In this document: positions 7,823 through 59,496 of the stretch, in pieces
How positions within the stretch are numbered: position 1 is the stretch's first letter
How the letters are laid out: each line of letters begins with the position of its first letter
Assembly: GCA_963770895.1 (NCBI GenBank)
Contig: CAVYRF010000001.1
Coordinates: 64,001 to 128,000 of the forward strand
Direction of reading: 5' to 3'
Length of the DNA stretch: 64,000 bases
From: an uncultured Acidobacteriota bacterium
GTDB taxonomy: Bacteria; Acidobacteriota; Thermoanaerobaculia; Multivoradales; UBA5704
Made by a program: the position numbers and the translations under genes
The notes under the pieces: generated by a model
Seen by the model: the letters and a program-made list of their open reading frames with translations, nothing else
The model's database searches: none
What the model was told of the DNA's origin: nothing

Positions 7823-8287
7823 GTGATAAAAGATGCACGCACCCTCAGGGGTGTATTGCCCTTTTGCCGTCTCATCTTGAGGACGGCTTTCGAGCCACAA
7901 GCGGCCTATCCCGCAGAGCCGCGGACCATGGGCGAACGCCTACTGAAGCGGCGGCTGGACCTGGGCCTTTCCCAGCGCGAGGTGACCGAGATTCTCGGCG
8001 CGAGCGTCGGCACCCTCACTGCCTGGGAGAAGAGCCGGCAGGAGCCTGGCGAGCGGTATCTGCCTGCCATCCTGGACTTCTTAGGGTGTGATCCGCAGCC
8101 GACACCCGAAACGTTCGGCGGACGGGTCAGGGCCGCAAGGAAGGCCGAGGGACTCTCTGAGGAGGCGCTGGCCCATCAGCTCGGGCTCCAACCCGGCACG
8201 GTCACCGCTTGGGAGCGCGGCGAAATCCGCCGACCTCATCCGCAGACGAGGAAAGCCTTCGAGCGGTGGCTTGCCTCGCGCCAGTAG
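7823..8287 (+). CDS. Double XRE-family HTH protein whose 5' end overlaps att site B
   Basis: Two HTH_3 domains (RRLDLGLSQREVTEILG; ARKAEGLSEEALAHQLG). Start is uncertain (GTG 7823 or internal ATG 7928). Confidence 0.8.
   Translation: MIKDARTLRGVLPFCRLILRTAFEPQAAYPAEPRTMGERLLKRRLDLGLSQREVTEILGASVGTLTAWEKSRQEPGERYLPAILDFLGCDPQPTPETFGGRVRAARKAEGLSEEALAHQLGLQPGTVTAWERGEIRRPHPQTRKAFERWLASRQ
7833..7887 (+). repeat. att-like site B (attL/attR of the LSR1 element)
   Basis: ATGCACGCACCC-TCAG-GGGTGTATTGCCCTTTTGCCGTCTCATCTTGAGGACGGC. The right arm is an inverted repeat of the site C left arm. Confidence 0.85.
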
Positions 8288-8296
8288 GTCGGCGCC

Positions 8297-8521
8297 TCAT
8301 TCGCCGCCGAGGAAGAACGTGAGCGGCTTCTTGTAGAGGCGGGCAAACTTCTCAAGCTCGGTCGGGTCGATCCGGCGCTCCCCGGACTCCACCTTGGAGA
8401 CGAAGGACTGCGGCCGGTCGAGTTCCTCGGCGACCTGTTCCTGGGTCATGCCCGCCGCCTTCCGGGCTGCCTTGAGGCGCTCGCGCATCCTCGTGTACTC
8501 GGGGGTGTGGATGGGCTTCAT
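8297..8521 (-). CDS. XRE-family transcriptional regulator
   Basis: RLKAARKAAGMTQEQVAEELDRPQSFVSKVESGERRID. Confidence 0.9.
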   Translation of the reverse strand: MKPIHTPEYTRMRERLKAARKAAGMTQEQVAEELDRPQSFVSKVESGERRIDPTELEKFARLYKKPLTFFLGGE

Positions 8522-8567
8522 GGTATCGGGGGCCTTCCGCTTCTCGCCTCGCACTTGAAGATTCTTC

Positions 8568-8633
8568 ATCCCAGGCTCGGATAATCCCAGCATCGGATAG
8601 TGTCGCCTCCGACCGAACATCCCAAGATGGGAT
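8568..8633. promoter_or_regulatory. Three ATCCCA-N3-TSGGAT operator-like palindromes in a divergent intergenic region
   Basis: 8568 ATCCCAGGCTCGGAT, 8584 ATCCCAGCATCGGAT, 8619 ATCCCAAGATGGGAT (perfect palindrome). Confidence 0.7.
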
Positions 8634-8645
8634 GAAAGGAGGCAC

Positions 8646-8963
8646 ATGTCCGAGCCCGAAGCCCCCGAGCGCTGGCCCATCACCCGCTGCCGCGAGGCAC
8701 TGTGGGAGGCGGCCTGCCAAGTCCTCCTCCTGCGGGAGGAACTCGCGTCCCTCAAGGCAGTCCTGCCGCTCGCCGACGACCTGGACGAGCAGCTCGAATA
8801 TCGCCGGCCCTACGACCCGGCGACCGACATGCTCGTCGCCATCGAGACCGTGGTAGCGAACTTCCTTGCGCCTGCGCAGGCGGCCTTGGAGAAATCGGCC
8901 TCGGCGACCGAGGAGCGCCTCGGAGTCGAGTTTGAGGAGGAGGCGCGCAAATGGCGACCGTAA
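8646..8963 (+). CDS. Hypothetical protein
   Basis: AAGGAGG RBS; first gene of an overlapping operon. Confidence 0.7.
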   Translation: MSEPEAPERWPITRCREALWEAACQVLLLREELASLKAVLPLADDLDEQLEYRRPYDPATDMLVAIETVVANFLAPAQAALEKSASATEERLGVEFEEEARKWRP

Positions 8964-9358
8964 GCCTTCGCCTCACGCGCAGCGAGCTGGCCCGCGCTCT
9001 CGCCATCCTCCGGGTCTCCCGCGGCTGGTTGCAGCAGGATGTCGCGGAAGCCTCGGGCCTCTCCGCGGCGCTCGTCTCCCTCGCGGAGAACAAGAACGCC
9101 GTTCCGCCCTCCACGCACTCCCTGGAACTCATGGTCGAGGCAATGGGCTTTCCGATTGCGACGCTCTCCCGCGCCCGTGACTTCCTCCGGGAACTCGACT
9201 CCGAGCTGCGCCGCGGGGATGCAGGGCGGGAAGACCCCGCCGCATGGAGGTCGGCGAGTCTCTCCCTTGAGGAGCGCGATGACGATCTCCCTTTTCCCGG
9301 ACCCCGCACGACGAACTGGTTTGGTCCGCGCTGGCCGGCGCCGAGGAGGACGAGATGA
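8951..9358 (+). CDS. XRE-family HTH protein
   Basis: LRVSRGWLQQDVAEASGLSAALVSLAEN; GAGGAGG RBS. Confidence 0.8.
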   Translation: MATVSLRLTRSELARALAILRVSRGWLQQDVAEASGLSAALVSLAENKNAVPPSTHSLELMVEAMGFPIATLSRARDFLRELDSELRRGDAGREDPAAWRSASLSLEERDDDLPFPGPRTTNWFGPRWPAPRRTR

Positions 9359-9618
9359 AAGGCGAAAGAGTCCAGACCGGCGTCCGCATGGAAAAGCGCC
9401 TGGTGAAGGTCTTGAAGGCCCTCGCCGAACTGCGGGACCTCTCGCTCGGCGATCTCCTCGAATACATCGTCTGCCGCGCCTTCGAGGGGAAGGAGCCCTT
9501 CGTCGCCCATGAGGTCGGCCAGATTGTGCAGCTCATGGGCATCTATGAGCTTGATCCCGCCCGCTGCTGCCCCCGGCGGTCGCAAGAGGAGGCGGCCCTT
9601 GAGCCCAAAGAGAGCTAA
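9355..9618 (+). CDS. Ribbon-helix-helix-like small DNA-binding protein
   Basis: RVQTGVRMEKRLVKVLKALAELRDLSLGDLLE; ATGA overlap. Confidence 0.7.
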   Translation: MKGERVQTGVRMEKRLVKVLKALAELRDLSLGDLLEYIVCRAFEGKEPFVAHEVGQIVQLMGIYELDPARCCPRRSQEEAALEPKES

Positions 9619-10243: not shown

Positions 10244-10530
10244 AGGTCAAGGTCATGCTCTCCATGGACCGCGGGCTCTTCGACCTGTGCCGCGCGATCG
10301 CCCGCGCCCACGGAGTGCCGCTTGACGACCTGGTAGAGGAAACCCTGCTCGCGGCATTCGTCGGGGAAGAAGCCTTCGTCCCGAGGGAGCAGGACGAGAT
10401 CGCGCTCCTCTCGCGGCTGTATCTCTTGGACCTCCAGAGGCTCGCTGAGCTGCGCCTCAAAGGCGGGATACTCACTCGCGACCGGAAACCAAAACGCCGG
10501 AGGCGGCGCACGAAAAAGAACCCCACGTAA
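10240..10530 (+). CDS. Hypothetical protein (RHH-like)
   Basis: GTGA overlap with radC; VKVMLSMDRGLFDLCRAIARAHGVPLDDLVEE. Confidence 0.55.
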   Translation: MKVKVMLSMDRGLFDLCRAIARAHGVPLDDLVEETLLAAFVGEEAFVPREQDEIALLSRLYLLDLQRLAELRLKGGILTRDRKPKRRRRRTKKNPT

Positions 10531-10540
10531 AGGTGGGGTT
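10519..10540. terminator. Hairpin between convergent operons
   Basis: AACCCCAC-GTAAAG-GTGGGGTT. Confidence 0.5.
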
Positions 10541-10560
10541 GATGGGATGGGAAAGCGGGA

Positions 10561-11706: not shown

Positions 11707-11764
11707 GGAAATCTCCTTGCCGGCGCGGGGGCCGGCCATTTATGCTGCTCGGGTTGGATTGGGG

Positions 11765-14418: not shown

Positions 14419-15951
14419 TCAGCGAGGCGCGGTGGTAGCGGCCCAGGCGGCGGGCGCGAGCTCGTGGAGGCGGTCGGGCGAATGGCTTGGCAGGCGCTCG
14501 AAGAGAGCGCGTAGGTAGGCGAAGGGCTCGACGCCGTGGCGCTTGGCGCTCGCGATGAGGCTGTAGAGCTTGGCGGCGCGGACCCCGCCAGCGTCGCTGC
14601 CGGCGAAGAGCCAGTTCTTGCGGCCGATCGCCACGCAACGAAGAGCCCGCTCCGAGGCGGAGTTGTCCGGGCCGAGCTCGCCATCGCTCAAGTAGCGCTC
14701 GAGGGCTGCCCACTGTCGCCGCGTGTAGCCGATGGCCGTGGCCAGGGCGCTCTTCGGTAAAACCTGTCGCTCCATGTCCTCGAGCCAGAGTTTGAAAGCG
14801 TCAAGAATCTCGCGAGAGGCCTCCTGCCGCCGAGCCAGGCGTTGCTCGAAATCCAGTTCCTTGTCGCTGGCGTCGCGCTCCACCTTGAACAGCTGGCTGA
14901 TAAAGGCCAACGCCGCGTATCCGCGAGTGTCGCCAGCGCCTATCGCCGCTTCGTGAAAGTAGCGGCGGCAGTGAGCCCAACATCCCACCTCCAACACTGA
15001 GCCAGAGGCATAGAGCGCGTCGTAGCCAGAATACGCGTCGGCTTGCAGAAAGCCTTGAAAGCCCTCGAGGAAGCGCCTGGGCCCGACTCCCTCTCGGGTC
15101 GGAGTGTAGTCATAGACGACATGGGGATGACCACGGTCGCCGAGATACACCCAGAGCCTGCCCTTGTGGGTTCCACCCTGCTCGTCGAGCACCGTGACCG
15201 GCGTGTCGTCGGTCTGAAGAATGCGGGAACCTCGGAGATCGCTCTGCATCCAGCTAACCAGGGGGCTAACCAACTCGGCAGCATCGGCAACCCAGCCGCA
15301 GAGCGTCGAACGCGACAGCGTAATGCCGTGCCGACTAAAGATCTGGCTCTGGCGGTAGAGTGGCAGGTGGTCACCGAACTTGCTGACAACGACATGCGCC
15401 AAGAGTCCTGCGCCCGGAAGGCCCTTATCGATTGCACGTGGCGGCTGGGGGGCGCGCTTGATCGACTCGTCGCAGCCCTTGCAGGCGAACACGCCGCGCA
15501 CGTGCTCAATGATCTTGAACGAAGCCGGCGTATAGTCGAGCTGTTCCGTCGTCTCCTCGTGGATCTTCGTGAGCTCTTCGCCGCAGGACGCACAACAGCG
15601 CTCGTGTTCAGGCAGCAGGTGCTCGACGCGCTCTCGTGGAAGATCCTTTGGCAGCGGCTGACGCTTCGCTACGCCATGCCGGCGATGTTTGCCCGCCTCG
15701 ACCTCTTGCTCAAGCCGCTCCAGCTGGGGCTGCGAGATTCCGAGGTCTCGCATCGCTTCAAACACCAGCTCAAGCTGCCTTGGATCCAGCTTCTCCGAAT
15801 GCTTGCGGAACAGTTTCCTGAAGAGGGCGTCCACCTCTGTCTGCAGATACGCATTCTTGCGCTCAAGCCGGTCGACCGCCCCCAACAGCTGAGCGATCAC
15901 TCCTCGCAGCAGGGCCGGATCGTCCGGAAGCGTGTTCGGATCGAGGTCCAT
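14419..15951 (-). CDS. tnpC: IS66 DDE transposase TnpC
   Basis: SKFGDHLPLYRQ, LQTDDT, LQADAYSGY, CWAHCRR, DNSASERALR. Confidence 0.95.
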   Translation of the reverse strand: MDLDPNTLPDDPALLRGVIAQLLGAVDRLERKNAYLQTEVDALFRKLFRKHSEKLDPRQLELVFEAMRDLGISQPQLERLEQEVEAGKHRRHGVAKRQPLPKDLPRERVEHLLPEHERCCASCGEELTKIHEETTEQLDYTPASFKIIEHVRGVFACKGCDESIKRAPQPPRAIDKGLPGAGLLAHVVVSKFGDHLPLYRQSQIFSRHGITLSRSTLCGWVADAAELVSPLVSWMQSDLRGSRILQTDDTPVTVLDEQGGTHKGRLWVYLGDRGHPHVVYDYTPTREGVGPRRFLEGFQGFLQADAYSGYDALYASGSVLEVGCWAHCRRYFHEAAIGAGDTRGYAALAFISQLFKVERDASDKELDFEQRLARRQEASREILDAFKLWLEDMERQVLPKSALATAIGYTRRQWAALERYLSDGELGPDNSASERALRCVAIGRKNWLFAGSDAGGVRAAKLYSLIASAKRHGVEPFAYLRALFERLPSHSPDRLHELAPAAWAATTAPR

Positions 15952-16336
15952 AGAATGGTTTCGTTCTATCAGATTCTTCTTGCGCCTGTCCACTCCCGCG
16001 ACGCCATCGGCGGCGCCTCCTGACAGTGGCAAGCTCGATCCCTTCAAGCACCATCACCAGGTCGGCGGCGGAGATCTCCGCTCTGTCGCCGGGATGGCCA
16101 GGAAACTCGAAGCGACCGGCCTCCAGGCGCTTATACCAAATCCACAGCCCGGAGCCGTCGAACGAGAGAATTTTCAGCCGGTCCCGACGCCGATTCCAGA
16201 ACACGAACAGAGCTCCCGAAAGAGGGTCCTCCAGCAGACGCTCGCGAACGGCTACCTCGAGGCCGTCGAACGACCGACGCATGTCAAGCGGCTCGCGACA
16301 GATCAGCACTCGCGTGGACAGCGGTAGCGTCAGCAC
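15863..16336 (-). CDS. tnpB: IS66 accessory protein TnpB
   Basis: PLDMRRSFDGL...LFVFWNRRRDRLKIL...YKRLEAGRF. Confidence 0.92.
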   Translation of the reverse strand: MLTLPLSTRVLICREPLDMRRSFDGLEVAVRERLLEDPLSGALFVFWNRRRDRLKILSFDGSGLWIWYKRLEAGRFEFPGHPGDRAEISAADLVMVLEGIELATVRRRRRWRRGSGQAQEESDRTKPFYGPRSEHASGRSGPAARSDRSAVGGGRPA

Positions 16337-16710: not shown

Positions 16711-18757
16711 GTCGTACCTCCTGGCAGAGCAGAGTGCCCGATTCCGGCTCACGGCGAAAGGTACGGTTCACCGAACGCTTACCGCGGTCGCGACCTCCTG
16801 GCACTCGTCCGCGTAGAGGAAGAAAGGCCGGCGTTCCTCCCGCTTCACCTCCTGGCGACTCATGCATGTCTGGTGGAACTTGGAGACGAGGAGACTTCCG
16901 AGGAGAGCGGCGTTCTCGTCGCCGATCGCGCCCTGCGAAAGACGCGCAAGGAAGATCTGGCCCCGGTCCACGATGGAACGCAGATCAAGCCGGCTCTCCC
17001 TGGCGCCCACGATCTGCCGTACCGTCTTATTTCTCAAGAAGCCATCGAGGCGGGTGAGGATCGCGCCCACGCTCTTGCCAGCCGCCAGAGCGAACTCATG
17101 GCGAAAGTATGAAAGGAGGTATGGGTCCTCGACCGCGGCAAGGAGCCGCTCGCGGGTCTGCCGGTCCACGAGGAACTCCCTGAGATCAAGGAGCGTGCTT
17201 CCGGGATTCTCCAGGAGCACCAAGACCGCGTTCCCCAAGACGCTCGTCATCTGGTCGCCCCAGGAGGTCGAGAAGCGCCGGAAGATGCCTACGAGATCCG
17301 AGGCAAGGAGGGTGCGCTCAAGCTCGCTGTGGGCTTCGAGGATGTTCCAGGCAACCGGGTATGCAGTGTCCGCCGGATCGAAGAGGATGGCGTCCGATAG
17401 GCGCCCCTCGGGAATGCGTCCCGCGATCTCGTCTATAAGATCGCCGTGCGGGTCGAGGACGCCCACGCCCAGGCCTTCTTCGATGTCCTGCATAATGAGA
17501 TCAATTAGGAGCGTGGACTTGCCGGAGCCCGAGGCGCCGATCACATGGAGATGCCGGAGCCGCAGATCATTCGGCAGCCGCACCGGCACCGTCTTCCCGT
17601 GGTGCACGTTCTCGCCGAGAAGAATCCCCGCGCCTTGGGAAAGTATGGGCGCCGATTTCGAGCGCCGTATCTCCCGCAGGAGCTTCGGCACCCGAACTGA
17701 AGCGCTTGGGAGGTGCGCGAGGGCCGCCAGCTCATCGCTCCCCACGATCATGCCCGGCCGGCGACTCACTCGGTCGAAGATCTGCTCGGTCGCGTCCTCG
17801 CCCTCCTCGGAGGCGAGCGGGAGAAGCTCGTTGCCGTGAGGCACGCCGAAGTGGGTCAGTGCTCCGGCAAGATCGCGCACGATCCGCCAAGCGCCGGTCT
17901 GGTCCTCACTCTTCGCCGCCACCCGGAGGCAGGCGGCATACAGAGGTCGGGAGACTTTCTCCCGCGCGGCCTTCGTGAGTTCGGGATAGTCGGCGAAGAA
18001 GGGCTCGCCGCCCCCGGTCACGACCGCGCGCATCACGCTCTCCGCCCACCGCTCGCGGACTCGCGCGAAGAGGACTTGCACGAGGCCGGCTTCGCCGGGC
18101 TCAAGCTCGGCCATCGCCCCGAAGAGCGGCAGCAAGGGATCAGGGTCGAGGGAGCGGAAGGAGGCCAAGGGCAGCATGAACTCGCGCGCCAGGCCGAAGT
18201 GTACGAGGACGGTCTCGCCCTCGTGCCTGGTCCACGTCTCACGCAACTTTTCCGACTCACCGGAGATCGAGACCTCAGGGAAGAAGGCGCGGAGCTGGTT
18301 GGCGAGAAGGCCCGCATCCGGGGCGCGGGAGACGAGCTGCACGCGGAGCTGATCCGATAGACCCAGCACCTCGAAGGCCAAGGGCAGCTCGGCGCCGGAG
18401 AGAGCGAGGAGGAAGCGCTCCGCGCTCTCCGCCTTCACCGCCTCGTCCCGCGGCAGGGAGACCACGCACTCGGTGAGCGGTTCGTCGGTCGCGAAGGTCT
18501 CTACCTCGGGCTCTTCGATCTGCGACAGCGCCGGCTCGGGCCGAGTCGGCGCGATGAGGCGACTGAGGAGACCTGGCCGGTGGCCGTCGTCCTTGATGGG
18601 CTGGAGGAAATATCCGGGGAAGGGTACGTAGGGCGGTTCGAGTGCGACCACGGAGGGAAACTCCTGCCAGCCCCGACCGCGCAGTTCCCAGGCGTAGAAC
18701 TGCTCGGTCAGGCGCTCCGGCAGGGTGGGACGGGTCATCCGCTATCCCGCGGCGCGA

Positions 18758-19438
18758 TTACCTCTTGCCGCCCGGCTGGAAAGGGATCTTGCGCGCCTCC
18801 TCGGAGAGACCGCGCACGCCTTGGGCGGAAGTCACCTGGTCGATGGCTTCCGTGACCGCATGGTGCACCGACTCGCGGAACATGATCGCGGTGTCCTCGT
18901 TGAAGTATGTCTGCGGACGGAAGATGAGGCCGTAGAAGAAGCCGGTGATCGGCATCGAGAGCACCGTAGGTTCACTTCCGGTCTCGCCATAGCGGACGAG
19001 GAACCCAAGGCCCACGAGGAGGCCGAGGAGGAGCAAGGGGCCGCCCACGACCGCTATGCACCCATGGCCTCCCTCGCTCCCAGGATTGTCGCTCGTGAAC
19101 GCACGAAACATGAAAAAGGCCACAGCCAGCATGACGATTATAAAGAGGAAGTCCAGGAGGACGCGCTTGATCTTCGCAAGCCACCAGGAGAAGAAGTATC
19201 CGGTCCCGAAAGGGGCGGCGCAGATGTCGAAGTTCAGGCCCTCGCGACTGATGCGGAGATAGGCGCGCTTGCCGGAGCCCACGCCGCTTTCCTTCCATTC
19301 CACCTCGGAGATTTTGAGGTTCGGAATCTCGCGGCGGGCAACGCCGGCTTTAACCAATTCATAAAACTCGAGCGATGAGGTCGCAAAGCCCTCGATCAGG
19401 GAGTGCCAGTGGCCTTCGACCTGCGGGTTCTTAGACAT
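18758..19438 (-). CDS. Conserved membrane protein (paralog of 54103..54768)
   Basis: FDICAAPFGTGYFFSWWL, 2-3 hydrophobic helices; directly upstream of the large ATPase. Confidence 0.8.
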   Translation of the reverse strand: MSKNPQVEGHWHSLIEGFATSSLEFYELVKAGVARREIPNLKISEVEWKESGVGSGKRAYLRISREGLNFDICAAPFGTGYFFSWWLAKIKRVLLDFLFIIVMLAVAFFMFRAFTSDNPGSEGGHGCIAVVGGPLLLLGLLVGLGFLVRYGETGSEPTVLSMPITGFFYGLIFRPQTYFNEDTAIMFRESVHHAVTEAIDQVTSAQGVRGLSEEARKIPFQPGGKR

Positions 19439-23374: not shown

Positions 23375-24555
23375 ATCTGTGCCACCGGCAAACGTAGTGT
23401 GACCGTCTCCCCACTGAATGGTCGTGTCACCGCGCCATCCACCATAAGCCGCACGTAGATCTCGTGGTTCGGGAGGTTCGTGAGGTCTCTCGCCTCGAAC
23501 TCCGGGGCGAACTCCTGGGCCAAGATCCGGGCATCGGTCGGCCCCACCCGGAAGGAGATGAGGGTGCCGACGTTCCCAAGGATCGCATGCCGGATCTCCG
23601 GGTCGAGCTGGTCAAGATACTGGTTGGCGAGGATCAGGGAGACCCGGTATTTCCTCAGCTCCGAGAGCATGGCGGTCAGGTTCTTGGTGGCGAAGGTCTG
23701 GAACTCATCGAGGTAGAGGAAGAAGTCCGCCCGGCGCTCCTCCGGCAGCTCCGCCCGCGCCAGGCCATGGAGCGCGATCTGAGCTACGAGGAGGGAGCCC
23801 AAGAGCATCGCCGGCCCTTCGCCCAGCCTTCCCTTCGAGAGATTTACGAGGAGGATGCGCCGCTCGTCCATGATCCGCCGCAGATCGAGGCCCCGTGGGA
23901 CGGAAAGAACCCGGCGCATCACGGGATCGGTCAGGAATGCCCCGAGCTTGTTCTCCAATGGGGCGACGACAGTAGCCCGGAGGCTCTTCGAGTATTCCTC
24001 GTACTCCTCGCGCCAGAAGGAGCGCACGGCAGAGTTCGTGACCCGCTCAACAGCGCGTTCGCGGTAGCCAGAGTCGTGGAGGAGGCGGCCAATGTCGCCC
24101 ATGGTGGCCTCCGGCTGTTCGAGGAGGGCGAAGAGCGCATTGCGCAGGAGGTGTTCTACTCTCGGCCCCCAGGAGTCGAGCCAGGTCTTCTTGAAGACCT
24201 CCACAAGCCCGGCGACCGCGAGGGAGCGCTTCGCAGGAGGAACCGCGGCCAGGGGGTTGAAGCCAAAGCCGGAACCGGTCGCAGGATCGAAGAGGACGAC
24301 ATCCGATCGGCGCCGCTCGGGAATCCAAGCGTGAAGCCGCTCCACGAGATCGCCGTGCGGGTCCACGACCGCGCAGCCATCGCCCTTGCCGATGTCCTGC
24401 CGCAGGAGGGTCTGAAGGAGCGTGGACTTGCCGGCGCCGGTTTTGCCGATCACGTACATATGGGAGCGGCGGTCGGCGCGCCGGATGCCGAAGATACGGC
24501 GGTTACCGCGGAAGTTCGTGCGTGCGAAGAAGGAAAGATCGTGCGCGTCCGGCAT
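23371..24555 (-). CDS. Small VirD4/TraD-like ATPase (paralog of 43530..44687)
   Basis: HMYVIGKTGAGKS, DPHGDL, LYLDEFQ, LANQYLDQL. Confidence 0.9.
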   Translation of the reverse strand: MPDAHDLSFFARTNFRGNRRIFGIRRADRRSHMYVIGKTGAGKSTLLQTLLRQDIGKGDGCAVVDPHGDLVERLHAWIPERRRSDVVLFDPATGSGFGFNPLAAVPPAKRSLAVAGLVEVFKKTWLDSWGPRVEHLLRNALFALLEQPEATMGDIGRLLHDSGYRERAVERVTNSAVRSFWREEYEEYSKSLRATVVAPLENKLGAFLTDPVMRRVLSVPRGLDLRRIMDERRILLVNLSKGRLGEGPAMLLGSLLVAQIALHGLARAELPEERRADFFLYLDEFQTFATKNLTAMLSELRKYRVSLILANQYLDQLDPEIRHAILGNVGTLISFRVGPTDARILAQEFAPEFEARDLTNLPNHEIYVRLMVDGAVTRPFSGETVTLRLPVAQI

Positions 24556-24607
24556 TGCCTCATCTTCGCTCGTAGCGGCGCGCGGGAAAGGCCGCTCGCT
24601 ATGCCGC

Positions 24608-25126
24608 CTACGGATTCGCGAGATGGTCCGTGCTTGCGCTGGATCGCGCGACCTGTGCCGCCGCGAGGCCGACGGCATCGAACACGTTCATGCGCGGGTC
24701 CTCCGTCATCCAGACCTTGCGCTTCCACGGCAGCCGGTCGCCGAGGTCCGGGAAAATCTCGGCGAGACGCACCGCCACCTCGTACTTGCCCTTGCCCGGC
24801 GCGAAGGTATCGAGAACGGTGAGGCGCGAGACCCTCTCGACCGGCACGCCGCGCTTCAATGCAAGGCGTTCCAGGGAGCGAATCTCCCCTCGGGCGCGCT
24901 TGCGGCGTCGGGCGCCAGGGGCCGTGGTGTCCTCAAGGACAAGGACCGCCGGGTGGTGCTTGGAGAGGAGAACTTCCACCTTGCGCACGAGCGCGCCGGT
25001 CTTCGGGAGAGCGGTCCTCTGCCCGCGGTCCACGAGGTGGAGTGGCGCTTCAAGGACGGCGAAGGCAAAGCCCGTTCTCGTAGGGTCGATGGCGATATAG
25101 GTAATGGGCGCGGGGAGGTTCGACAT
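24608..25126 (-). CDS. RuvC-like (RNase H fold) nuclease/resolvase
   Basis: IAIDPTRTGFAFAVLE, VLVLED, NVFDAVGLA. Confidence 0.65.
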   Translation of the reverse strand: MSNLPAPITYIAIDPTRTGFAFAVLEAPLHLVDRGQRTALPKTGALVRKVEVLLSKHHPAVLVLEDTTAPGARRRKRARGEIRSLERLALKRGVPVERVSRLTVLDTFAPGKGKYEVAVRLAEIFPDLGDRLPWKRKVWMTEDPRMNVFDAVGLAAAQVARSSASTDHLANP

Positions 25127-25127
25127 C

Positions 25128-25451
25128 TCAGGCGGCGCGATGGGAGGCGGAGCCGACCGATGCTCCCCGGTGTTTCTCTTTCAGCACTTCGAGCTTCCGC
25201 CGCCGCGCTTCAACCTCCCTCTGGATCGCCTCGTATCTACCGCGGAAGAGCTTCGCGACCGGCTCCCCGAGCGCGGCCTCGTAAGCAAGGCCGGATTCCA
25301 AGGAAGGGATGCGAAGTCCCGACTCGTAGCGCGACACCTTGGCCGGGGTCGAGGCGCCCAGGAGATACGCGAGCTCCTTCTGCGAGAGGTGCGCGTGGCG
25401 TCGGTAGCTTTTGAGGTAGTAGTGGAGTGGGCGTCCGTCGAAATGCATCAT
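25128..25451 (-). CDS. XRE-family HTH protein (paralog of 42639..42959)
   Basis: YRRHAHLSQKELAYLLG...VSRYESGLRIP. Confidence 0.85.
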   Translation of the reverse strand: MMHFDGRPLHYYLKSYRRHAHLSQKELAYLLGASTPAKVSRYESGLRIPSLESGLAYEAALGEPVAKLFRGRYEAIQREVEARRRKLEVLKEKHRGASVGSASHRAA

Positions 25452-25608
25452 GGCGACATGAAGAATAAGCGGCGAGCGAGGTCGTTTGTAGAGGGAGAAA
25501 TGTTCCGCGGGCGGAACGTTCTCAGAGCGCAGACTGAAAGGAGAAGATTGGAGGGGGCTATCCTGCCTGCGGCGAAGCGACGGCAGAGACAAAAACAATT
25601 ACTTTCAT

Positions 25609-28999: not shown

Positions 29000-29185
29000 A
29001 TGCGATTTAAGGACAATGACCTGCGGGAGTTCGTGGCGATCTGGAAACGAGTCTTCAACGAGGAGATCTCGCTCGCCGATGCACGCCACCGCGCCTCGCA
29101 GCTCGTCACCCTCTACCTCGCGCTCGCCAAGCGCCTGCCCGAGGAAATAGACAATCCGCCAGCTCATCCACCCACCTCGTCATGA
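29000..29185 (+). CDS. Small hypothetical protein coupled to LSR2
   Basis: LREFVAIWKRVFNEEISLADA...QLVTLY; ATGA overlap with the recombinase. Confidence 0.65.
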   Translation: MRFKDNDLREFVAIWKRVFNEEISLADARHRASQLVTLYLALAKRLPEEIDNPPAHPPTSS

Positions 29186-42478: not shown

Positions 42479-42638
42479 ATGCCAGTGATCGTTCACCCTC
42501 TCGTGATTTGTTTGCCAGCGGCAGGATAGGGCTCTCGGAGTTATTCCCCCCGTCTTTCTGTCTCGCGATAACTTTTCGCCCGCGAAAAGTTTCGCCCTCT
42601 ACCGACGACCTTTCCCGCCGCCTATTCTTTGTGACGCT

Positions 42639-42959
42639 ATGTCTCACACTCACAGTCGGCCATTCAACTACTATCTCCGCAGCCACCGCCGGCACGCCCA
42701 TCTGACCCAGGCAGAGCTTGCCTATCTCTTGGGCGAGCACACCGGCACGAACGTTTCCCTCTATGAGACCGGGGCTCGCAAACCATCTTTGGATAAGGGC
42801 CTGGCCTACGAAGCCGCGCTCGGTGAGCCGGTTGCGAAGCTCTTCCGCGGCAGGTACGAGGAGATCCGTGATCTGGTCGAGGAGCGGCGGCGCAAGCTCA
42901 TGGCAGACCGGGAGAGGAGGCAGGCAAAGGTCAGCTCTGTGGTCCATTCCGCTGCCTGA
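42639..42959 (+). CDS. XRE-family HTH protein
   Basis: HRRHAHLTQAELAYLLG...VSLYETGARKP. Confidence 0.85.
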   Translation: MSHTHSRPFNYYLRSHRRHAHLTQAELAYLLGEHTGTNVSLYETGARKPSLDKGLAYEAALGEPVAKLFRGRYEEIRDLVEERRRKLMADRERRQAKVSSVVHSAA

Positions 42960-42960
42960 G

Positions 42961-43485
42961 ATGCCGAGCCTTCCGAAGAACGCCATCCTTCTCGCGATCG
43001 ACCCGACATCGAGGGGCCTTTCCTTCGCCGTCCTCGAAGCTCCCGCCTATCTCGTGAGTTGGGGCTCGCGGGAAGCCACGACCAAGACCGTCCTCAAAAA
43101 GCTGGACGAACTTTTGACCCAGTTCAACCCTGACGTGCTCGTGCTTGAGGATCTTGCCGCAGAGGGCGCTCGGCGCCGAGCGCGCGCCAAGCGCGAGATT
43201 CAAGCCATGGAGCTGCTCGCCTTCACTCGCGGGTTGCAGGTTGAGTGGGTCTCGCGGCTTGCCGTCCGCGATACGTTCGCGCCGGGAATGAACAAGTACG
43301 CGGTGGCGGTCCGACTCGCGGCGATTTTCCCCGACCTCGCGGAGCAGGTTCCCCGCAAGCGCAAGGCATGGATGCCCGAGGATTTACGCATGAACGTCTT
43401 TGACGCCCTGGGCTTCGCGGTGGCGCTCGTGGAACGCGCAGGCCAACACTCTTCAAGGCGCACGCATTCATCGCTAGGGAAATAA
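42961..43485 (+). CDS. RuvC-like (RNase H fold) nuclease/resolvase
   Basis: LLAIDPTSRGLSFAVLE, PDVLVLED, NVFDALGFA. Confidence 0.65.
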   Translation: MPSLPKNAILLAIDPTSRGLSFAVLEAPAYLVSWGSREATTKTVLKKLDELLTQFNPDVLVLEDLAAEGARRRARAKREIQAMELLAFTRGLQVEWVSRLAVRDTFAPGMNKYAVAVRLAAIFPDLAEQVPRKRKAWMPEDLRMNVFDALGFAVALVERAGQHSSRRTHSSLGK

Positions 43486-43529
43486 GCGGCATTCTTTCCG
43501 GGCAACGCACCGCCGCCGACAATGGAGCT

Positions 43530-44687
43530 ATGCCTGAGCATCTCTTCTTCTTCGCTCGCACCAACTACCGCGGCAATCGGCGCCTCTTTGGCATCCAGCG
43601 CGCTGATCGCCGCAGCCACATGTACTTGATCGGGAAGACCGGCACCGGCAAGTCCACCCTCCTTCAGACGCTTCTCCGGCAGGACATAGGGAACGGCGAC
43701 GGCTGCGCGGTTGTAGACCCGCACGGCGACCTGGTGGAGCGCCTCACCGCGTGGATACCGGAGCGGCGCCGATCGGATGTCGTTGTCTTCGATCCGGCGA
43801 CCGGTTCCGGCTTTGGGTTCAACCCCTTGGCCGCGGTTCCGCCGGGCAAGCGCTCTCTTGCGGTTGCCGGCCTGGTCGAAGTCTTCAAAAAGACGTGGCT
43901 CGACTCTTGGGGGCCGCGGGTGGAGCATCTCCTGCGCAATGCCCTCTTCGCCCTCCTCGAACAGCCAGAGGCCACCATGGGCGACATCGGGCGCCTTCTC
44001 CACGACCCCGGCTATCGCGAGCGCGCGGTAGAGCGGGTAACGAACAGCGCGGTGCGCTCTTTCTGGCGGGAGGAGTACGAGGAATACTCGAAGAGCCTCC
44101 GGGCAACGGTCGTCGCTCCCTTGGAGAACAAGCTCGGAGCGTTCCTCACCGACCCCGTGATGCGGCGGGTCCTCTCTGTACCAAGGGGCCTCGACCTGCG
44201 GCAGATCATGGATGAAGGCAAGGTGCTCCTCGTGAACCTCTCGAAGGGCAGGCTGGGGGAAGGACCGGCCATGCTCCTCGGCTCCCTCCTCGTCGCGCAT
44301 ATTTCCTTGCATGGCCTGGCCCGTGCGGAGACCGCGGAGGATAGCCGCAGAGATTTCTTTCTATACCTCGATGAGTTCCAGACCTTCGCCACCAAGAACC
44401 TGACCGCCATGCTCTCGGAGCTACGTAAGTACCGGGTCTCCCTGATCCTTGCGAACCAATACCTCGATCAGCTTGACCCGGAAATCCGGCACGCAATCCT
44501 GGGGAACGTCGGCACCCTCATTTCTTTCCGGGTGGGGCCGACCGATGCCCGTATCTTGGCGCAGGAATTCGCCCCGGAGTTCGAGGCGAGGGACCTCACC
44601 AATCTCCCGAACCACGAGATCTACGTGCGGCTCATGGTGGAGGGGACGGTGACGCGGCCCTTCAGCGGGGAGACGGTGAAGCTGTAG
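43530..44687 (+). CDS. Small VirD4/TraD-like ATPase
   Basis: GKTGTGKS Walker A, YLDEFQ Walker B. Confidence 0.9.
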   Translation: MPEHLFFFARTNYRGNRRLFGIQRADRRSHMYLIGKTGTGKSTLLQTLLRQDIGNGDGCAVVDPHGDLVERLTAWIPERRRSDVVVFDPATGSGFGFNPLAAVPPGKRSLAVAGLVEVFKKTWLDSWGPRVEHLLRNALFALLEQPEATMGDIGRLLHDPGYRERAVERVTNSAVRSFWREEYEEYSKSLRATVVAPLENKLGAFLTDPVMRRVLSVPRGLDLRQIMDEGKVLLVNLSKGRLGEGPAMLLGSLLVAHISLHGLARAETAEDSRRDFFLYLDEFQTFATKNLTAMLSELRKYRVSLILANQYLDQLDPEIRHAILGNVGTLISFRVGPTDARILAQEFAPEFEARDLTNLPNHEIYVRLMVEGTVTRPFSGETVKL

Positions 44688-54102: not shown

Positions 54103-54768
54103 ATGCGTAAGCCGCAGGTCGAAGGCCACTGGCACTCCCTGGTCGAGGGCTTTGCCACCTCATCCCTGGACTTCTACGAGCTGGTAAAGGCCGGCATTGC
54201 GAGGCGGGAGATCCCCGACCTCAAGGTTTCCCAGGTGGAGTGGAAGGAGAGCGGCTTGGGCTCCGGCAAGCGCACCTACCTGCGAGTTAGCCGCGAGGGC
54301 CTGAACTTTGATATCTGCGCCGCGCCCTTCGGCACCGGGTACTTCTTCTCCTGGTGGCTCGCACGCATTCCGCGCGTCCTCTTGGACTTCGCCTTCATCT
54401 TCGGCTGTTTCTGCGCTTGGTGGCTCATTGCCCTCGTCCTCCTCTCGGGGAACCGGGAGGGCCATGGCTGCGGCGTGATCTTCGCCCCCTTCGTGCTCTT
54501 GGCGCTCATCCTCGCCCTCGGCTTCTTCGTCCGCTACGGCGAGAGTGGCCTGGAGACGACCGTTCTCTCCATGCCGATCACCGGCTTCTGCTATGGGCTC
54601 ATCTTCCGCCCGCAGACATATGTCAACGAGGACACCGCGATCATGTTCCGAGAGTCGGTCCACCACGCGGTCACGGAAGCTATCGACCAGGTGACCTCCG
54701 CTCAAGGCGTGCGCGGGCTCTCCGAGGAGGCGCGTAAGATCACCTTCCAGCCGGGCGGCAAGAGATGA
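54103..54768 (+). CDS. Conserved membrane protein
   Basis: AGGAGG RBS; paralog of 18758..19438. Confidence 0.8.
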   Translation: MRKPQVEGHWHSLVEGFATSSLDFYELVKAGIARREIPDLKVSQVEWKESGLGSGKRTYLRVSREGLNFDICAAPFGTGYFFSWWLARIPRVLLDFAFIFGCFCAWWLIALVLLSGNREGHGCGVIFAPFVLLALILALGFFVRYGESGLETTVLSMPITGFCYGLIFRPQTYVNEDTAIMFRESVHHAVTEAIDQVTSAQGVRGLSEEARKITFQPGGKR

Positions 54769-54785
54769 CCGCCGCGGGATAGAGG

Positions 54786-57779
54786 ATGAGCCGTACCACC
54801 CTGCCGGAGCGCCTTACCGAGCAGTTCTACGCCTGGGAACTGCGCGGTCGGGGCTGGCAGGAGTTTCCCTCCGCGGTCGCGCTCGAACCGCCCTACGTAC
54901 CCTTCCCCGGATACTTCCTGCCGCCGATCAGGGACGACGGCCACCGGCCGGGACTCCTCAGTCGCTTCCTGGCACCGCCTCGGCGAGAAGAAGAAACACC
55001 AGAGCTTGAGGAACCCGAACCGGAAGCGTTCCAAACCGACGAGCCCTTGATCGAGTGCCTCGTCTCCCTGCCGCGGGACGAGGCGGTGAAGCCCGAGAGC
55101 GCCGAGCGCTTTCTCCTGGCCCTCTCCGGCGCCGAGCTGCCCTTGGCCTTCGAGGTGGTGGGCCTCTCGGATCAGCTCCGCGTGCAGCTCGTCTCCCGCG
55201 CGCCGGATGCGGGACTCCTCGCAAACCAGCTCCGGGCCTTCTTCCCCGAGGTCTCGATCGCGACCGAGCCGGAAGGGTTGCGGCAGACGTGGACGCGCAC
55301 GCAGGGCGAGACCGTCCTCGTCCACTTCGGCTTGGCGCGCGAGTTCATGCTGCCCTTGGCCTCCTTCCGCTCCCTCGACCCCGATCCCTTGCTGCCGCTC
55401 TTCGGCGCGATGGCCGAGCTCGAACAGGGCGAGATAGGACTCGTCCAGGTGATCTTCCAGCGGGTCCGTGAGCGGTGGGCCGAGAGCGTGATGCGCGCTG
55501 TCGTGACCGGCGGCGGCGAGCCCTTTTTCGCGGACTACCCGGAACTCACGAAGGCTGCGCGGGAGAAGGTTTCCCGGCCCCTGTATGCCGCCTGTCTGCG
55601 GATAGCAGCAAAGAGCAGCGATGCGAGCGGCGCCTGGCGGATCGTGCGCGACCTGGCCGGAGCCGTGACCCATTTCGGCGTGCCTCACGGCAACGAGCTT
55701 CTCCCGCTCGCCTCCGAGGAAGGCGACGACGCGACCGAGCAAATCTTCGAGAGGGTCAGTCGCCGGCCGGGCATGATCGTAGGAAGCGATGAGCTGGCGG
55801 CCTTGGTACACCTCCCGGGCGCCTCAGTGCGGGTGCCGAAGCTCCTGCGGGAGATACGACGATCGAAGGCGGCGCCAGCGCTCTCGCAAGGATCAGGCAT
55901 CCTTCTCGGCGAGAACCTCCACCACGGCAAGACGGTGCCGGTCAGGCTTCCGAATGATCTGCGGCTCCGGCATCTCCATGTGATCGGGGCCTCGGGCTCG
56001 GGCAAGTCCACGCTCCTCATCGATCTCATCATGCAGGACATCGAAGAGGGCCGGGGCGTCGGCGTCCTCGATCCGCACGGCGATCTCATAGACGAGATCG
56101 CGGGGCGCATCCCCGAGGGGCGCCTATCGGACGCCATCCTCTTCGATCCGGCGGACACTGCATACCCGGTTGCCTGGAACATCCTCGAAGCCCACAGCGA
56201 GCTTGAGCGCACGCTCCTTGCCTCGGACCTCGTAGGCATCTTCCGCCGCTTCTCGACCTCCTGGGGCGACCAGATGACAAGCGTTCTTGGGAACGCGGTC
56301 CTCGTGCTCCTTGAAAACCCCGGAAGCACGCTCCTTGATCTCAGGGAGTTCCTGGTGGACCGTTCGGCCCGCGAACGGTTGCTTGCCGCGGTCGATGATC
56401 CATACCTCCTTTCATATTTTCGGCATGAGTTTCAGCTGGCGGCCGGGAAGAGCGTGGGCGCCATCCTCACGAGGCTCGATGGCTTCTTGAGAAGCAAGAC
56501 GGTGCGCCAGATTGTCGGCGCTCGTGAGAGCCGGCTTGATCTTCGCGCCGTCGTAGACCAGGGGCAGATCTTCCTTGCCCGGCTCTCCGAGGGCGCGATC
56601 GGGGAGGAGAACGCAGCGCTCCTCGGAAGCCTCCTCGTCTCCAAGTTCCACCAGATCACGATGAGCCGGCAGGAGGTGAAAAGAGAAGAGCGCCGGCCCT
56701 TCTTCCTTTACGCGGACGAGTGCCAAGAGGTAGCCACTTCTTCCATGGCGCAGCTCCTTGCGGGAGCGAGGAAGTACGGCTTGGGACTCACGCTTGCCCA
56801 TCAGGATCTCCGCCAGCTAGAAGCGAAAGCTCCCGAGGTCGCCTCGGCCCTTCTCGGGAACGCCGGCACGCGCATCGCCTTCCGGGTCGGTGACCGGGAC
56901 GCGAAGGCTCTCTCCGAGGGTCTCTCCTTCTTTGGCGCTGGCGACCTCATGAGCCTGCGAGTTGGGGAGGCCATCGCCCGGATCGACAACTCGCAGGGTG
57001 ACTGCAATCTAAAGACGCATCTTCTGCCGGCGGTGGCGCCAGAGACGGCCGCCGAGCGGCGCGAGGCGATCACCGCTCGCTCGCGCGAGCGCTATGCCGT
57101 GCGGCGTGAAGAGCGGCAAAGAGCGGCTGAGTCGGAGCCAGAGGTCACACGGCCGGCAGCTCCACGCACGGAAAGGACGCCACCGCCGGTCCCGACCAAG
57201 CCAGCACCCACCCCGCCGCAACCGGCACCGGCCCGCGAGCGCGGGACTCCGCCCATCGCGCCTCCGCCCCTCGGCCGCGGTGGGCCGGAGCATCAGTACC
57301 TCCAAGAACTCGTGAAGCGCTGGGGCGAGGCCAAGGGTTACCGGGCGACGGTCGAGGAACCGTTGCCGTCCGGCGGCCGGGTGGACGTGGCTCTGCGGCG
57401 CGAGGGGCATTCCCTCGCTTGCGAGATCTCGGTCACGACTGGCGCCGAGCACGAAATTGGGAACGTCCTGAAATGCCTTGAGGCGGAATTCGATGATGTG
57501 GTCCTCCTCTCGCTCCATCGCGGCACGCTCGGCAAGGTGCGGCAGGCGGCGGAAACCAGGGTGGCCGAGAAGGACCGGGGCCGTCTCCACTTTATGAGCC
57601 CGGAGGAGTTTTTCACGTTCCTTGACGCTCCGGCGCCGGCTGCGACCGAAACAACGGTAGGCGGGTACAAGGTGAAGGTGAAGTACCGGCCGGCCGAGGG
57701 CGAAGCGGCGACGAGGAAAAGCAAGGCGGTCTCGGAGATACTGCTCAAGAGCGTGAAGCGGATGAAAAAAGAGGAATAG
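54786..57779 (+). CDS. Large VirD4/TraD-like ATPase with C-terminal restriction-endonuclease-like domain
   Basis: GASGSGKS, YADECQ, Pro-rich linker, then H..LQ...EE...GRVDVAL...ACEIS. Confidence 0.88.
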   Translation: MSRTTLPERLTEQFYAWELRGRGWQEFPSAVALEPPYVPFPGYFLPPIRDDGHRPGLLSRFLAPPRREEETPELEEPEPEAFQTDEPLIECLVSLPRDEAVKPESAERFLLALSGAELPLAFEVVGLSDQLRVQLVSRAPDAGLLANQLRAFFPEVSIATEPEGLRQTWTRTQGETVLVHFGLAREFMLPLASFRSLDPDPLLPLFGAMAELEQGEIGLVQVIFQRVRERWAESVMRAVVTGGGEPFFADYPELTKAAREKVSRPLYAACLRIAAKSSDASGAWRIVRDLAGAVTHFGVPHGNELLPLASEEGDDATEQIFERVSRRPGMIVGSDELAALVHLPGASVRVPKLLREIRRSKAAPALSQGSGILLGENLHHGKTVPVRLPNDLRLRHLHVIGASGSGKSTLLIDLIMQDIEEGRGVGVLDPHGDLIDEIAGRIPEGRLSDAILFDPADTAYPVAWNILEAHSELERTLLASDLVGIFRRFSTSWGDQMTSVLGNAVLVLLENPGSTLLDLREFLVDRSARERLLAAVDDPYLLSYFRHEFQLAAGKSVGAILTRLDGFLRSKTVRQIVGARESRLDLRAVVDQGQIFLARLSEGAIGEENAALLGSLLVSKFHQITMSRQEVKREERRPFFLYADECQEVATSSMAQLLAGARKYGLGLTLAHQDLRQLEAKAPEVASALLGNAGTRIAFRVGDRDAKALSEGLSFFGAGDLMSLRVGEAIARIDNSQGDCNLKTHLLPAVAPETAAERREAITARSRERYAVRREERQRAAESEPEVTRPAAPRTERTPPPVPTKPAPTPPQPAPARERGTPPIAPPPLGRGGPEHQYLQELVKRWGEAKGYRATVEEPLPSGGRVDVALRREGHSLACEISVTTGAEHEIGNVLKCLEAEFDDVVLLSLHRGTLGKVRQAAETRVAEKDRGRLHFMSPEEFFTFLDAPAPAATETTVGGYKVKVKYRPAEGEAATRKSKAVSEILLKSVKRMKKEE

Positions 57780-57814
57780 GGAGGGGAGGAGCCCGTAGCC
57801 CGATCGGAAGAAAT

Positions 57815-57829
57815 ATCCCAAGATGTGAT
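57815..57829. promoter_or_regulatory. Operator-like palindrome upstream of LSR1
   Basis: ATCCCAAGATGTGAT, one mismatch from the 8619 site. Confidence 0.65.
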
Positions 57830-57879
57830 ATTTTCTTTTGGCTGAGGTAGACGGGAACTCCGCAGGAGAGCGAGTGGCT

Positions 57880-59496
57880 ATGACCAAGGCAAAGCAAGCC
57901 GACGAACCGGCCCCGAAGCGCGTCGCGATCTGGATCAGGGTCTCGACCGAGGACCAAGCCAAGGGCGAGAGTCCCGAGCACCACGAGCACCGCGCCCGAG
58001 CCTATGCGGAGGTGAAGGGCTGGCAGGTGGTGACCCTGTATAACCTGGCCGGCGTCTCCGGCAAAGCCGTCATGGCCCACCCGGAAGCCCGCCGGATGAT
58101 GGAGGACGTGAAGGCCGGCCGCATCTCGGGCCTCATCTTCTCCAAGCTCGCGCGCCTGGCCCGCAATACCAAGGAACTCCTCGACTTCGCGGAGTTCTTC
58201 AAGGCGGAGGGCGCCGACCTCATCTCCCTTCAGGAGTCGATCGACACCTCGACCCCCGCCGGCCGCTTCTTCTACACGGTCGTGGCCGGCATGGCGGCCT
58301 GGGAGCGCGAGGAGATCGCCGAGCGCGTCTCGGCCTCTGTCCCTATCCGCGCGAAGCTCGGCAAACCCCTCGGCGGTGCCGCGCCCTTCGGTTACCAGTG
58401 GCATGAGCGGCGCCTCGTGCCCCACCCGGAGGAAGCGCCGGTGCGCCGACTCATCTACGAGCTGTTCCGCGAGCACAAGCGCCTGAAGACCGTCGCGCAG
58501 ACCTTGACCGCGCGCGGCTACCGCACGCGGCGGGGCGAGCGCTTCACGGATACGACGCTGCGCCGCCTCATCGAGGACCCGACCGCGAAAGGCGCGCGGC
58601 GGGCGAACTACACGAAGTCCCGCGGCGACGGCAAGAGCTGGGACTTGAAACCGGCTGCGGAGTGGGTGACCGTCGCCGTGGAGCCCGTCGTCTCCGCGGA
58701 GCTGTGGACGGAATGCAACGCCCTCCTTGCAGAACGGACGCGCACGCGGAAGCCTCCGACCAAGCGGCCGGTCCACCTCTTCACCGGGCTCGTCCACTGC
58801 ACCTGTGGTGGGAACTTCAAGGTTCCCTCAAGCATCCCGAACAAGTACGTCTGCGACGGGTGCCGGCGGAAAATCCCGATCACCGACCTCGAACGGCTCT
58901 TTCAGACGGAACTTGAACGCTTCGTCCTCTCGCCCGCAGCCGTGGCGGCTCACCTCGCCGACGGGGATGCGGCACTCGTCGGGAAGGACGCACTGCTCGC
59001 GTCGCTCCTCTCCGAGCGGGAGCGCCTCGCGGCAGAAGCCGAGAAGCTCTACCGCCTCTACCTGGCCGACTCTCTCTCGGTCGAGAGCTTCGGGGCGAAG
59101 CACCGGCCCCTTGAGGAGCGCCTCCGCCAGCTGGATGAGGAGGTGCCCCGCCTCCAAGGCGAAATCGACTTCCTCCGCATCAGCCTCCTGAACCAGGCCG
59201 AGGTCATCTCTGAAGCTCGCGATCTCTACCACCGCTTTGAGGATTTGCCTTTCGAGGACCGGCGGGCAATCGTCGAGGCGATCGTGGAGCGCATCCAGAT
59301 CGGGAGGGAGGAAATCGAGCTGACGCTCGCCGCCCTCCCTTCCTTTCCCAAGATGACGGCATTTGGGCAACACACCCCCAGGGGTTCATTCATAAGTTGC
59401 CACCCTGCCGCGTCACCCTCCGAGGACGCAAGGCGGCGACCTCAAGAACGTGGCGATGTGATAGCGTCTGATGCGTGCGCACCACACTCGACATAG
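57880..59496 (+). CDS. Large serine recombinase/integrase (LSR1); reads through att site C
   Basis: WIRVST, KLARLARN, GAAPFGY, Zn ribbon CTCG...YVCDGC, coiled coil. Confidence 0.95.
   Translation: MTKAKQADEPAPKRVAIWIRVSTEDQAKGESPEHHEHRARAYAEVKGWQVVTLYNLAGVSGKAVMAHPEARRMMEDVKAGRISGLIFSKLARLARNTKELLDFAEFFKAEGADLISLQESIDTSTPAGRFFYTVVAGMAAWEREEIAERVSASVPIRAKLGKPLGGAAPFGYQWHERRLVPHPEEAPVRRLIYELFREHKRLKTVAQTLTARGYRTRRGERFTDTTLRRLIEDPTAKGARRANYTKSRGDGKSWDLKPAAEWVTVAVEPVVSAELWTECNALLAERTRTRKPPTKRPVHLFTGLVHCTCGGNFKVPSSIPNKYVCDGCRRKIPITDLERLFQTELERFVLSPAAVAAHLADGDAALVGKDALLASLLSERERLAAEAEKLYRLYLADSLSVESFGAKHRPLEERLRQLDEEVPRLQGEIDFLRISLLNQAEVISEARDLYHRFEDLPFEDRRAIVEAIVERIQIGREEIELTLAALPSFPKMTAFGQHTPRGSFISCHPAASPSEDARRRPQERGDVIASDACAPHST
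59349..59393 (+). repeat. att-like site C inside the LSR1 3' end
   Basis: CAAGATGACGGCATTTGGGCAACACACCC-CCAG-GGGTTCATTCAT. Confidence 0.85.

Follow-up and report, generated by a model that had tools for sequence, protein, structure and literature searches.

How does a gene for a large serine recombinase (LSR) come to run into an attachment (att)-like site whose partner lies 51.5 kb away, at the very start of an open reading frame (ORF) for a double helix-turn-helix (HTH) protein? The question was raised by a 64,000-nt stretch of DNA, hereafter the window, from an uncultured Acidobacteriota soil bacterium (positions 64,001 to 128,000 of contig CAVYRF010000001.1, assembly GCA_963770895.1). We propose, with a probability of roughly 75%, that the two sites, B and C, are attL and attR of an integrative element similar to an integrative and conjugative element, that the LSR gene of this element (LSR1) contains its own attP, and that excision would rebuild a 646-codon ORF. 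The features needed for the argument are as follows.

57880-59496, plus strand: LSR1, large serine recombinase in its integrated form, 538 amino acids (aa); residues 1-500 element-encoded, last 38 aa from the target side
7823-8287, plus strand: ORF for a linker and tandem XRE-type HTH domains, 154 aa from GTG 7823; putative downstream half of the split integrase gene
7823-7887: site B, putative attL from repeat and arm alignment; target left arm 7823-7845, central CA 7846-7847, P-type right arm 7848-7887
59345-59431: site C, putative attR; P-type left arm 59345-59378, central CA 59379-59380, target right arm from 59381
7846-59380, plus strand: integrated element, ~51.5 kb, bounded on the left by B and on the right by C

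The heptamer CAGGGGT is common to both sites (7846-7852 in B, 59379-59385 in C). Taken alone it is no more frequent than chance predicts (7 occurrences in the window, 7.05 expected), but the flanking arms are far above chance: the 34 nt on the left of C (C-left) and the reverse complement of the 36 nt on the right of B (B-right) aligned with 28/34 identities and one 2-nt gap. Among 20,000 random 36-mers of the window, 3 scored as high, and these are presumably other arms of the same type. Thus, the att signal resides in the arms. When C-left and B-right were joined, the symmetry centre fell on the non-palindromic dinucleotide CA, so that imperfect-palindromic arms surround a 2-bp non-palindromic crossover, as in the att sites of large serine recombinases. 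This alignment bore out the near-palindromic attP put forward in the initial annotation, and judged by its sequence the joined site looks like a serine-integrase attP.

We then compared the coding content of the two sites. LSR1 starts at ATG 57880, and its codon 501 is the AGG at 59380-59382, inside site C; the HTH ORF has site B at its 5' end and reads AGG in its own frame at 7847-7849. The core therefore stands in the same reading frame at B and C, as had been claimed. Pfam assigned Resolvase (PF00239, E=1.2e-31, residues 16-158) and Recombinase (PF07508, E=1.4e-18) to LSR1, and its Zn_ribbon_recom family gave no match on LSR1 itself. The catalytic-serine column (S22) and three cysteine columns (C307, C325, C328) were invariant in 108 alignment rows. 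LSR1 has the make-up of a serine recombinase, namely a resolvase-type catalytic domain with the nucleophilic serine, a recombinase domain, and then a zinc ribbon with a coiled coil. The ORF at 7823-8287 matched HTH_3 (E=7.2e-18) in 2 stretches and aligned to the C-termini of fused homologs described below. Rejoining C-left to B-right gave 500 + 146 = 646 codons without a stop, and the predicted product of ~646 aa (an LSR of 500 aa followed by two HTH domains in 146 aa) was recovered with the Pfam domains claimed for it.

Two descriptions in the initial annotation needed revision. The HTH half is indeed separated from LSR1, but it is not simply orphaned, because B-left supplies the in-frame GTG 7823 after a Shine-Dalgarno-like GAAGGGG; the same flank precedes H3, another HTH gene of this genome. 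The integrase does acquire a target-side tail, but this tail is not junk: since the target is itself an att-like site, the tail of LSR1 is what remains of the linker of another HTH gene, in decayed form.

The position of the crossover in the protein was examined in an AlphaFold model of a fused homolog, P0117 (114-row alignment, mean predicted local distance difference test score [pLDDT] 87.6). The model consists of strands at 292-319, long helices at 338-441, and the closing strands of the zinc ribbon at 455-470, the last of which (464-470) ends the LSR fold. Residues 473-490, which are encoded by the left att arm and the crossover, are disordered (pLDDT below 50), and are followed by a short strand in the conserved linker (494-500) and by helical HTH domains at 514-565 and 577-632. 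The top Foldseek matches of this model were the SPbeta, phiC31, and Bxb1 integrases, and the LI integrase was matched as well. Because the crossover falls in a linker that is disordered and follows the whole recombinase fold, integration is predicted to remove only the HTH module, and the integrated form, on this model, should keep a complete canonical integrase fold. A complex prediction of LSR1 residues 290-500 with the linker-HTH part returned 'no answer' (score 0.09, mark 0.32) and speaks neither way.

We searched for LSR1 homologs and scored 8000 candidates, of which 5372 passed E<=0.001. Among the best 120 of these 5372, most were about 500-530 aa long, and three (P0044, P0074, and P0117; 633-648 aa) carried HTH_3. 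The order in these three is the recombinase, '...GQ(H/R)N...', 'ALPFCH..L(K/R)', '...YPRELRT.GDHIRKKR', and two HTH domains, and the junction stretches match the end of the element-encoded part of LSR1, 'FGQHTPR', and the start of the HTH ORF, 'GVLPFCRLILRT' then 'YPAEPRTMGERLLKRR'. A profile of the linker-HTH region (alignment A1) detected 37 longer proteins; 26 of them, three partial, were single ORFs with LSR domains and HTH_3. These fused ORFs are 630-690 aa long and comprise a resolvase domain, a recombinase domain, and two HTH_3 domains, with the same junction motif as in the window. One of the fused genes was followed at the DNA level: at locus L011 a 685-aa ORF (2980-5037) encodes Resolvase, Recombinase, and a pair of HTH domains. 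The palindromic attP within this ORF is intact, and its two arms have an outer block of 12 nt in common. Contigs that carry fused genes (P0127 of L011, P0136, and P0141) are 170-206 kb long. The flanks of L011 gave no Pfam matches indicating a plasmid, phage, or chromosome. LSR1 homologs with a fused C-terminal pair of HTH_3 domains, the search for which the initial annotation had recommended, thus exist.

The separated state was also found repeatedly. Besides LSR1, the source genome (8.16 Mb in three contigs) contains a paralog, LSRb (69% identity), an integrase fragment, LSRc, three further full-length HTH genes (H2, H3, and H4), and one truncated copy (H5). On one strand, 22 kb separate H3 from LSRc, and a 16-nt core is common to both in the same codon phase. 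They belong to a decayed 22-kb sister element (C2:4620595-4642588 of the source genome, G000), which retains H3 intact at one end and the last ~74 integrase codons at the other. In five other genomes with close LSR1 relatives we looked for the HTH partner and found three that were full-length; the two genomes without a clear partner were left uncounted. In these three pairs (L004/L063, L012/L062, and L013/L064), CA occupies codon positions 1-2 at either junction (attR read with the integrase, attL read with the HTH ORF), the target halves rejoin to the ComM motif ...AAMNPC.CG, and CA is the only base pair common to attL, attR, and the rejoined comM target. The reverse ORFs adjoining the L004 and L013 integrases are ComM/Mg-chelatase cut at position 158 of 207 of the Pfam profile. 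Counting B/C and H3/LSRc, the frame was kept across the att sites in 5/5 split pairs, which answers the question of whether it is conserved among relatives. These comparisons show that the split integrase gene is a family-wide layout with both states conserved.

Might the open frame across attP nevertheless be incidental, the integrase ending functionally near residue 490 and the HTH protein being a separate regulator with its own start? At the 62.7% G+C of the window many long ORFs are spurious, the HTH copy has two potential initiation codons here (GTG 7823 and ATG 7928), and the palindromic arms constrain any peptide read through them. However, the fused ORFs of 630-690 aa in relatives have a K/N/I-rich composition that suggests low G+C, and L011 was read as DNA. 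The linker peptide is conserved and predicted to form a strand, no start codon is conserved before the HTH domains, and no exception was seen in the five in-frame pairs. Furthermore, the window-type (P1) and H3-type (P2) linkers differ by indels of -2 and +2 that flank a shared GAGGACGG, and this compensated frameshift, which keeps the linker open, argues for selection on its reading frame. Coincidence of this kind is, in our judgement, very improbable.

How the two states are distributed was surveyed in metagenomes with A1, which yielded 80 linker-HTH loci. In 6 of them an LSR was fused in frame upstream; in 27 an antisense comM lay upstream, that is, attL in comM; about 31 had other upstream sequence and about 12 too little of it. 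The comM attL copies that were read at the sequence level had the HTH frame stopped ~7 codons upstream and lacked a conserved start codon. Across copies, the residue before the first HTH domain is M, I, F, or L, encoded by ATG, ATT, TTC, TTG, CTT, or CTG. Since an upstream stop is combined with the lack of a conserved start, it seems that the HTH module is not translated unless it belongs to a longer ORF.

These copies also bear on another explanation, in which the HTH protein, once separated, would work in trans on the shortened integrase of the integrated element, as a directionality factor (RDF) or an inhibitor, and the split itself would be the switch. For the window copy and H3 the target side does provide a GTG and a GAAGG-type ribosome site in frame; H2 and H3 are intact although their integrases have been lost or reduced to a fragment; and engineered integrase-RDF fusions are known tools. 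In the 27 comM-inserted copies, however, to go by the examples read, the module is probably untranslated. XRE-type HTH domains are DNA binders, and no serine-integrase RDF is known to be of this kind. Action in trans is therefore improbable, if less so than an incidental frame.

One metagenome protein, P0155, fuses the N-terminal part of ComM, up to the AAMNP motif, in frame to the linker and two HTH domains. By its arrangement it looks like an insertion in the opposite orientation, with the HTH module expressed from the comM promoter.

The integrase side was analysed in alignment A3 (108 rows, to which 17 fused forms had been added on purpose). In its 90 unfused rows the tails after the invariant proline 487 were 2-67 aa long (median 22), and a comM-antisense signature was found in 50/69 short tails. 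No LAA-like, ssrA-type ending was visible in the integrase tails examined. In the LSR-core tree, the fused label has to change 10 times, and well-supported branches make at least 5 of these changes unavoidable; the fused forms are scattered in a 77-row clade. Because of this scattering, the fused and the unfused form seem to be alternative states of a single family, not separate subfamilies. The plasmid and phage collections contained no close relatives and IMG/VR only 2, and none of these collections yielded a close relative that was fused.

On the proposal of an integrase gene that contains its own attP, the events may be pictured as follows. The crossover CA would lie in the disordered linker between a recombinase of ~487 aa (catalytic domain, recombinase domain, and zinc ribbon/coiled coil) and the linker strand with its two XRE-type HTH domains. 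Integration would cut the gene there: the enzyme would keep its canonical domains and gain a target-encoded tail, and the linker-HTH half would end up 51.5 kb away, at the opposite end of the element. Excision would restore one 646-codon Int-HTH ORF. The two integrase isoforms would in this way report the state of the element, and we infer that the long form is made only while attP exists. The tethered HTH domains might repress the int or transfer promoters while the element is free. Alternatively, they might contact flanking DNA beside attP and thereby favour attP x attB recombination, a logic comparable to that of the arm-binding contacts of lambda integrase. The short isoform together with a directionality factor would carry out excision. 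A switch of directionality or autoregulation, as the initial annotation had envisaged, is plausible from the arrangement of the gene.

A candidate for an operator was found upstream of the integrase gene.

57811-57833: AT-rich 7-N9-7 inverted repeat, candidate operator, upstream of LSR1

In the 8.16-Mb genome this repeat occurs here and upstream of LSRb (C2:5378222-5378244); the only other hits were two one-mismatch matches. It was not conserved in more distant relatives. Another candidate binding site for the HTH module is an inverted repeat at 7865-7886, in the P-type right arm of B. The similarity of the int upstream region to attP was at chance level (25% of random windows equalled its score), and a promoter/terminator scan of 7400-9000 gave no match.

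What was the target into which the element inserted? The window element is not inserted in comM. Rejoining B-left to C-right gave a near-palindromic att-like site, which in one frame reads like the junction between C-terminus and linker of another LSR subfamily (P0026, P0018). An uninterrupted B-left/C-right copy lies in the same genome at C1:1999649-1999710 and matches C-right at 93.5% identity over 62 nt; it is followed by the remnant of an HTH gene and by a PIN gene. In one soil contig a B-left-like sequence seems to run straight into C-right, although only a loose end of 30 letters shows it. The target thus resembles an att site, and two more sites of this type, A and D, which had been pointed out before, are present outside B and C.

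4131-4185: site A, putative outer attL; CA 4144-4145, P-type right arm 88% identical to the B arm, no HTH gene behind it
61284-61338: site D, putative outer attR; CA 61324-61325, P-type left arm, no integrase gene upstream

A-left and D-right would together form a perfect 12+12 palindrome. The A/D unit amounts to 5.6 kb, is split by the inner element, and lacks an integrase; it contains the B/C target and genes for DUF433/DUF5615, CHAT, TPR, VapBC-like, and DUF429-like (60142-61299; Pfam) proteins. Contig C2 has three more P-type arms that lack an HTH gene; one lies 1.3 kb past LSRb, as a counterpart of D. We read the arrangement of the four sites as a nested insertion into an integrase-less, att-flanked element that carried the landing pad.

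A metagenome contig of 1021 nt, L154, encodes an HTH region 98% identical to that of the window behind the same B junction. Upstream of this junction L154 has the intact LSR C-terminus of the other subfamily, but its frame is off by one base. Hybrids of two subfamilies thus do occur at such junctions, and the B junction may predate the integration of LSR1.

L154 brings in a further explanation, namely that B and C are themselves hybrid junctions left by successive recombination among resident att-like sites, and that the 51.5-kb interval is composite and perhaps not one excisable unit. The outer pair A/D, with P-type arms and no integrase, would fit such a history, as would the other-subfamily reading of B-left + C-right, the arms at three places on contig C2, and the interior of the element with its second LSR and two inverted module copies of 85-87% identity (see below). 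In opposition to this, no arm pairs better with C-left in a palindrome than B-right does, and vice versa, which is what a single attP should show; the target is attested by the uninterrupted copy in the same genome and, apparently, by the loose end of the soil contig. Even if the junctions were hybrids, recombination of B with C would still make the fused ORF. We regard a composite origin as unlikely, though it deserves more weight than either of the two explanations discussed above.

Several observations weigh against an excisable element with a self-split integrase gene. The HTH ORF of the window has the two possible starts mentioned above. In four of the 80 metagenome loci (L154, L180, L217, and L220) the upstream LSR is out of frame. 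LSR1's own clade of 31 rows contains no fused row, and the closest fused relative, P0025 (84% identity, outside the tree), has a degenerate first HTH domain. The interior is rearranged, with inverted duplicated modules and several insertion sequences (IS), and the element may no longer be mobile. No circle junction was found in reads: contigs from public runs (Logan, soil metagenomes) contained at most 0.48 of the words, and those of four runs, when aligned to 57800-61500, barely covered LSR1 and never spanned C, so that they are uninformative on excision.

A more general and more tentative idea may be added. With attP in the linker between integrase and HTH domains, a preferred target might be the equivalent linker of a resident HTH gene, either free-standing or linked to an integrase. 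Each integration would then exchange partners: the incoming integrase would be joined to the resident HTH domains, as in P0025, and the incoming HTH domains would come under the start codon of the resident gene, as happened at B. Nested arrays of the A-B-C-D kind would be built up in this way. Such module swapping is doubtful at present. If true, the recombination event itself would rewire both the integrase isoform and the expression of the regulator, and would allow control of directionality and immunity without a classical directionality factor.

How does this layout compare with known systems? LSR1 shares with the phiC31, Bxb1, SPbeta, and LI (A118) serine integrases the fold of resolvase, recombinase, and zinc-ribbon/coiled-coil domains, and its sites are likewise short and imperfectly palindromic with a non-palindromic central dinucleotide. 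Unlike in those integrases, attP would here lie inside the integrase ORF, with a tandem XRE-type HTH module attached only in the attP state. A recombination site within the integrase ORF is a feature of SSV-type archaeal tyrosine integrases, whose gene is split by integration into inactive halves (PMC7253208). The present enzyme is a serine recombinase, and its catalytic and DNA-binding core would survive the split, only an accessory module being removed, whereas the SSV-type enzyme is inactivated.

In mycobacteriophage BPs and in Clusters G, N, and P, attP lies in the repressor gene and integration removes an ssrA-like degradation tag (PMC9262239). There, as here, attP would be inside a gene, integration would change the C-terminus of a protein, and the product would be tied to the state of integration. 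That system, however, combines a tyrosine integrase, a repressor gene, and a tag; in the window the serine-integrase gene itself is concerned, and a whole DNA-binding module would be exchanged.

The LSR sr1WO of phage WO of Wolbachia is described as integrating in a magnesium chelatase gene, with HTH_XRE and RadC/DUF2466 genes at the opposite end of the prophage (10.1101/2021.11.04.467296). Many LSR1 relatives are likewise in comM, and the left end of the window element carries XRE genes and RadC, but this element is itself located elsewhere. In phage WO WOVitA1 (record KX522565) the recombinase, which we take not to be an sr1WO, has no fused HTH domain and is followed by an unrelated gene on the opposite strand.

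A full-text search of the literature, with most subscription journals outside its reach, returned no description of a serine integrase with an ORF spanning attP or with a state-dependent HTH module, and the layout is apparently undescribed. Serine integrases are central tools of genome engineering. Their choice between integration and excision is an active structural question, and recent cryo-EM entries were among our Foldseek matches. If our reading is true, the domain make-up of an enzyme would be set by the state of its own substrate, which would be a new principle of directionality or self-regulation. There are also practical consequences. Database proteins of the LSR1 family carry chimeric, target-derived C-termini of 2-67 residues past the last invariant proline, attP can be read straight from the gene in this family, and many of its members target a conserved comM site.

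We also examined the remaining content of the element. According to Pfam, it comprises a module of XRE regulators, RadC, and DUF932 (XRE and RadC at the left end), a primase, a methylase, several IS, a second LSR, a pair of a kinase and an extracytoplasmic function (ECF) sigma factor, a surface protein, and two inverted modules of ATPases resembling type IV coupling proteins (T4CP). The T4CP-like ATPases matched TrwB_AAD_bind and TraG-D_C. No relaxase or VirB4 was detected among 40 element ORFs scanned with Pfam, many of which had no Pfam match at all. The inverted copies of the T4CP-like modules (16787-19429 versus 54109-56737, and 23402-25523 versus 42567-44677) are 72-92% identical by segment and 85-87% identical over the two longest, and an IS66 (14419-16047) has inserted into the large ATPase gene of the left copy. 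Judged by the sequence organization, two related elements seem to have been merged or rearranged here.

The second LSR (29182-30792) is different from LSR1. It is 536 aa long, contains Zn_ribbon_recom, and is encoded mid-element beside IS copies; a 72% identical copy is present at C2:5363026-5363949.

The flanks of the nested array were compared in 31 genomes. The GDSL gene of the left flank was matched in 29/31, G000 included, and the right flank in 10/31, mostly weakly. The right flank also contains a hairpin repeat (61366-61545; GGTGTCCCCC ... GGGGGACACC) resembling repetitive extragenic palindromic (REP) sequences, with at least 6 more copies on contig C2; it is unrelated to the att sites. 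In the left part of the A/D unit, between the CHAT and TPR genes (6125-6202), a 32-nt unit occurs three times; its copies are 84% identical, are spaced 23 nt apart, and so overlap.

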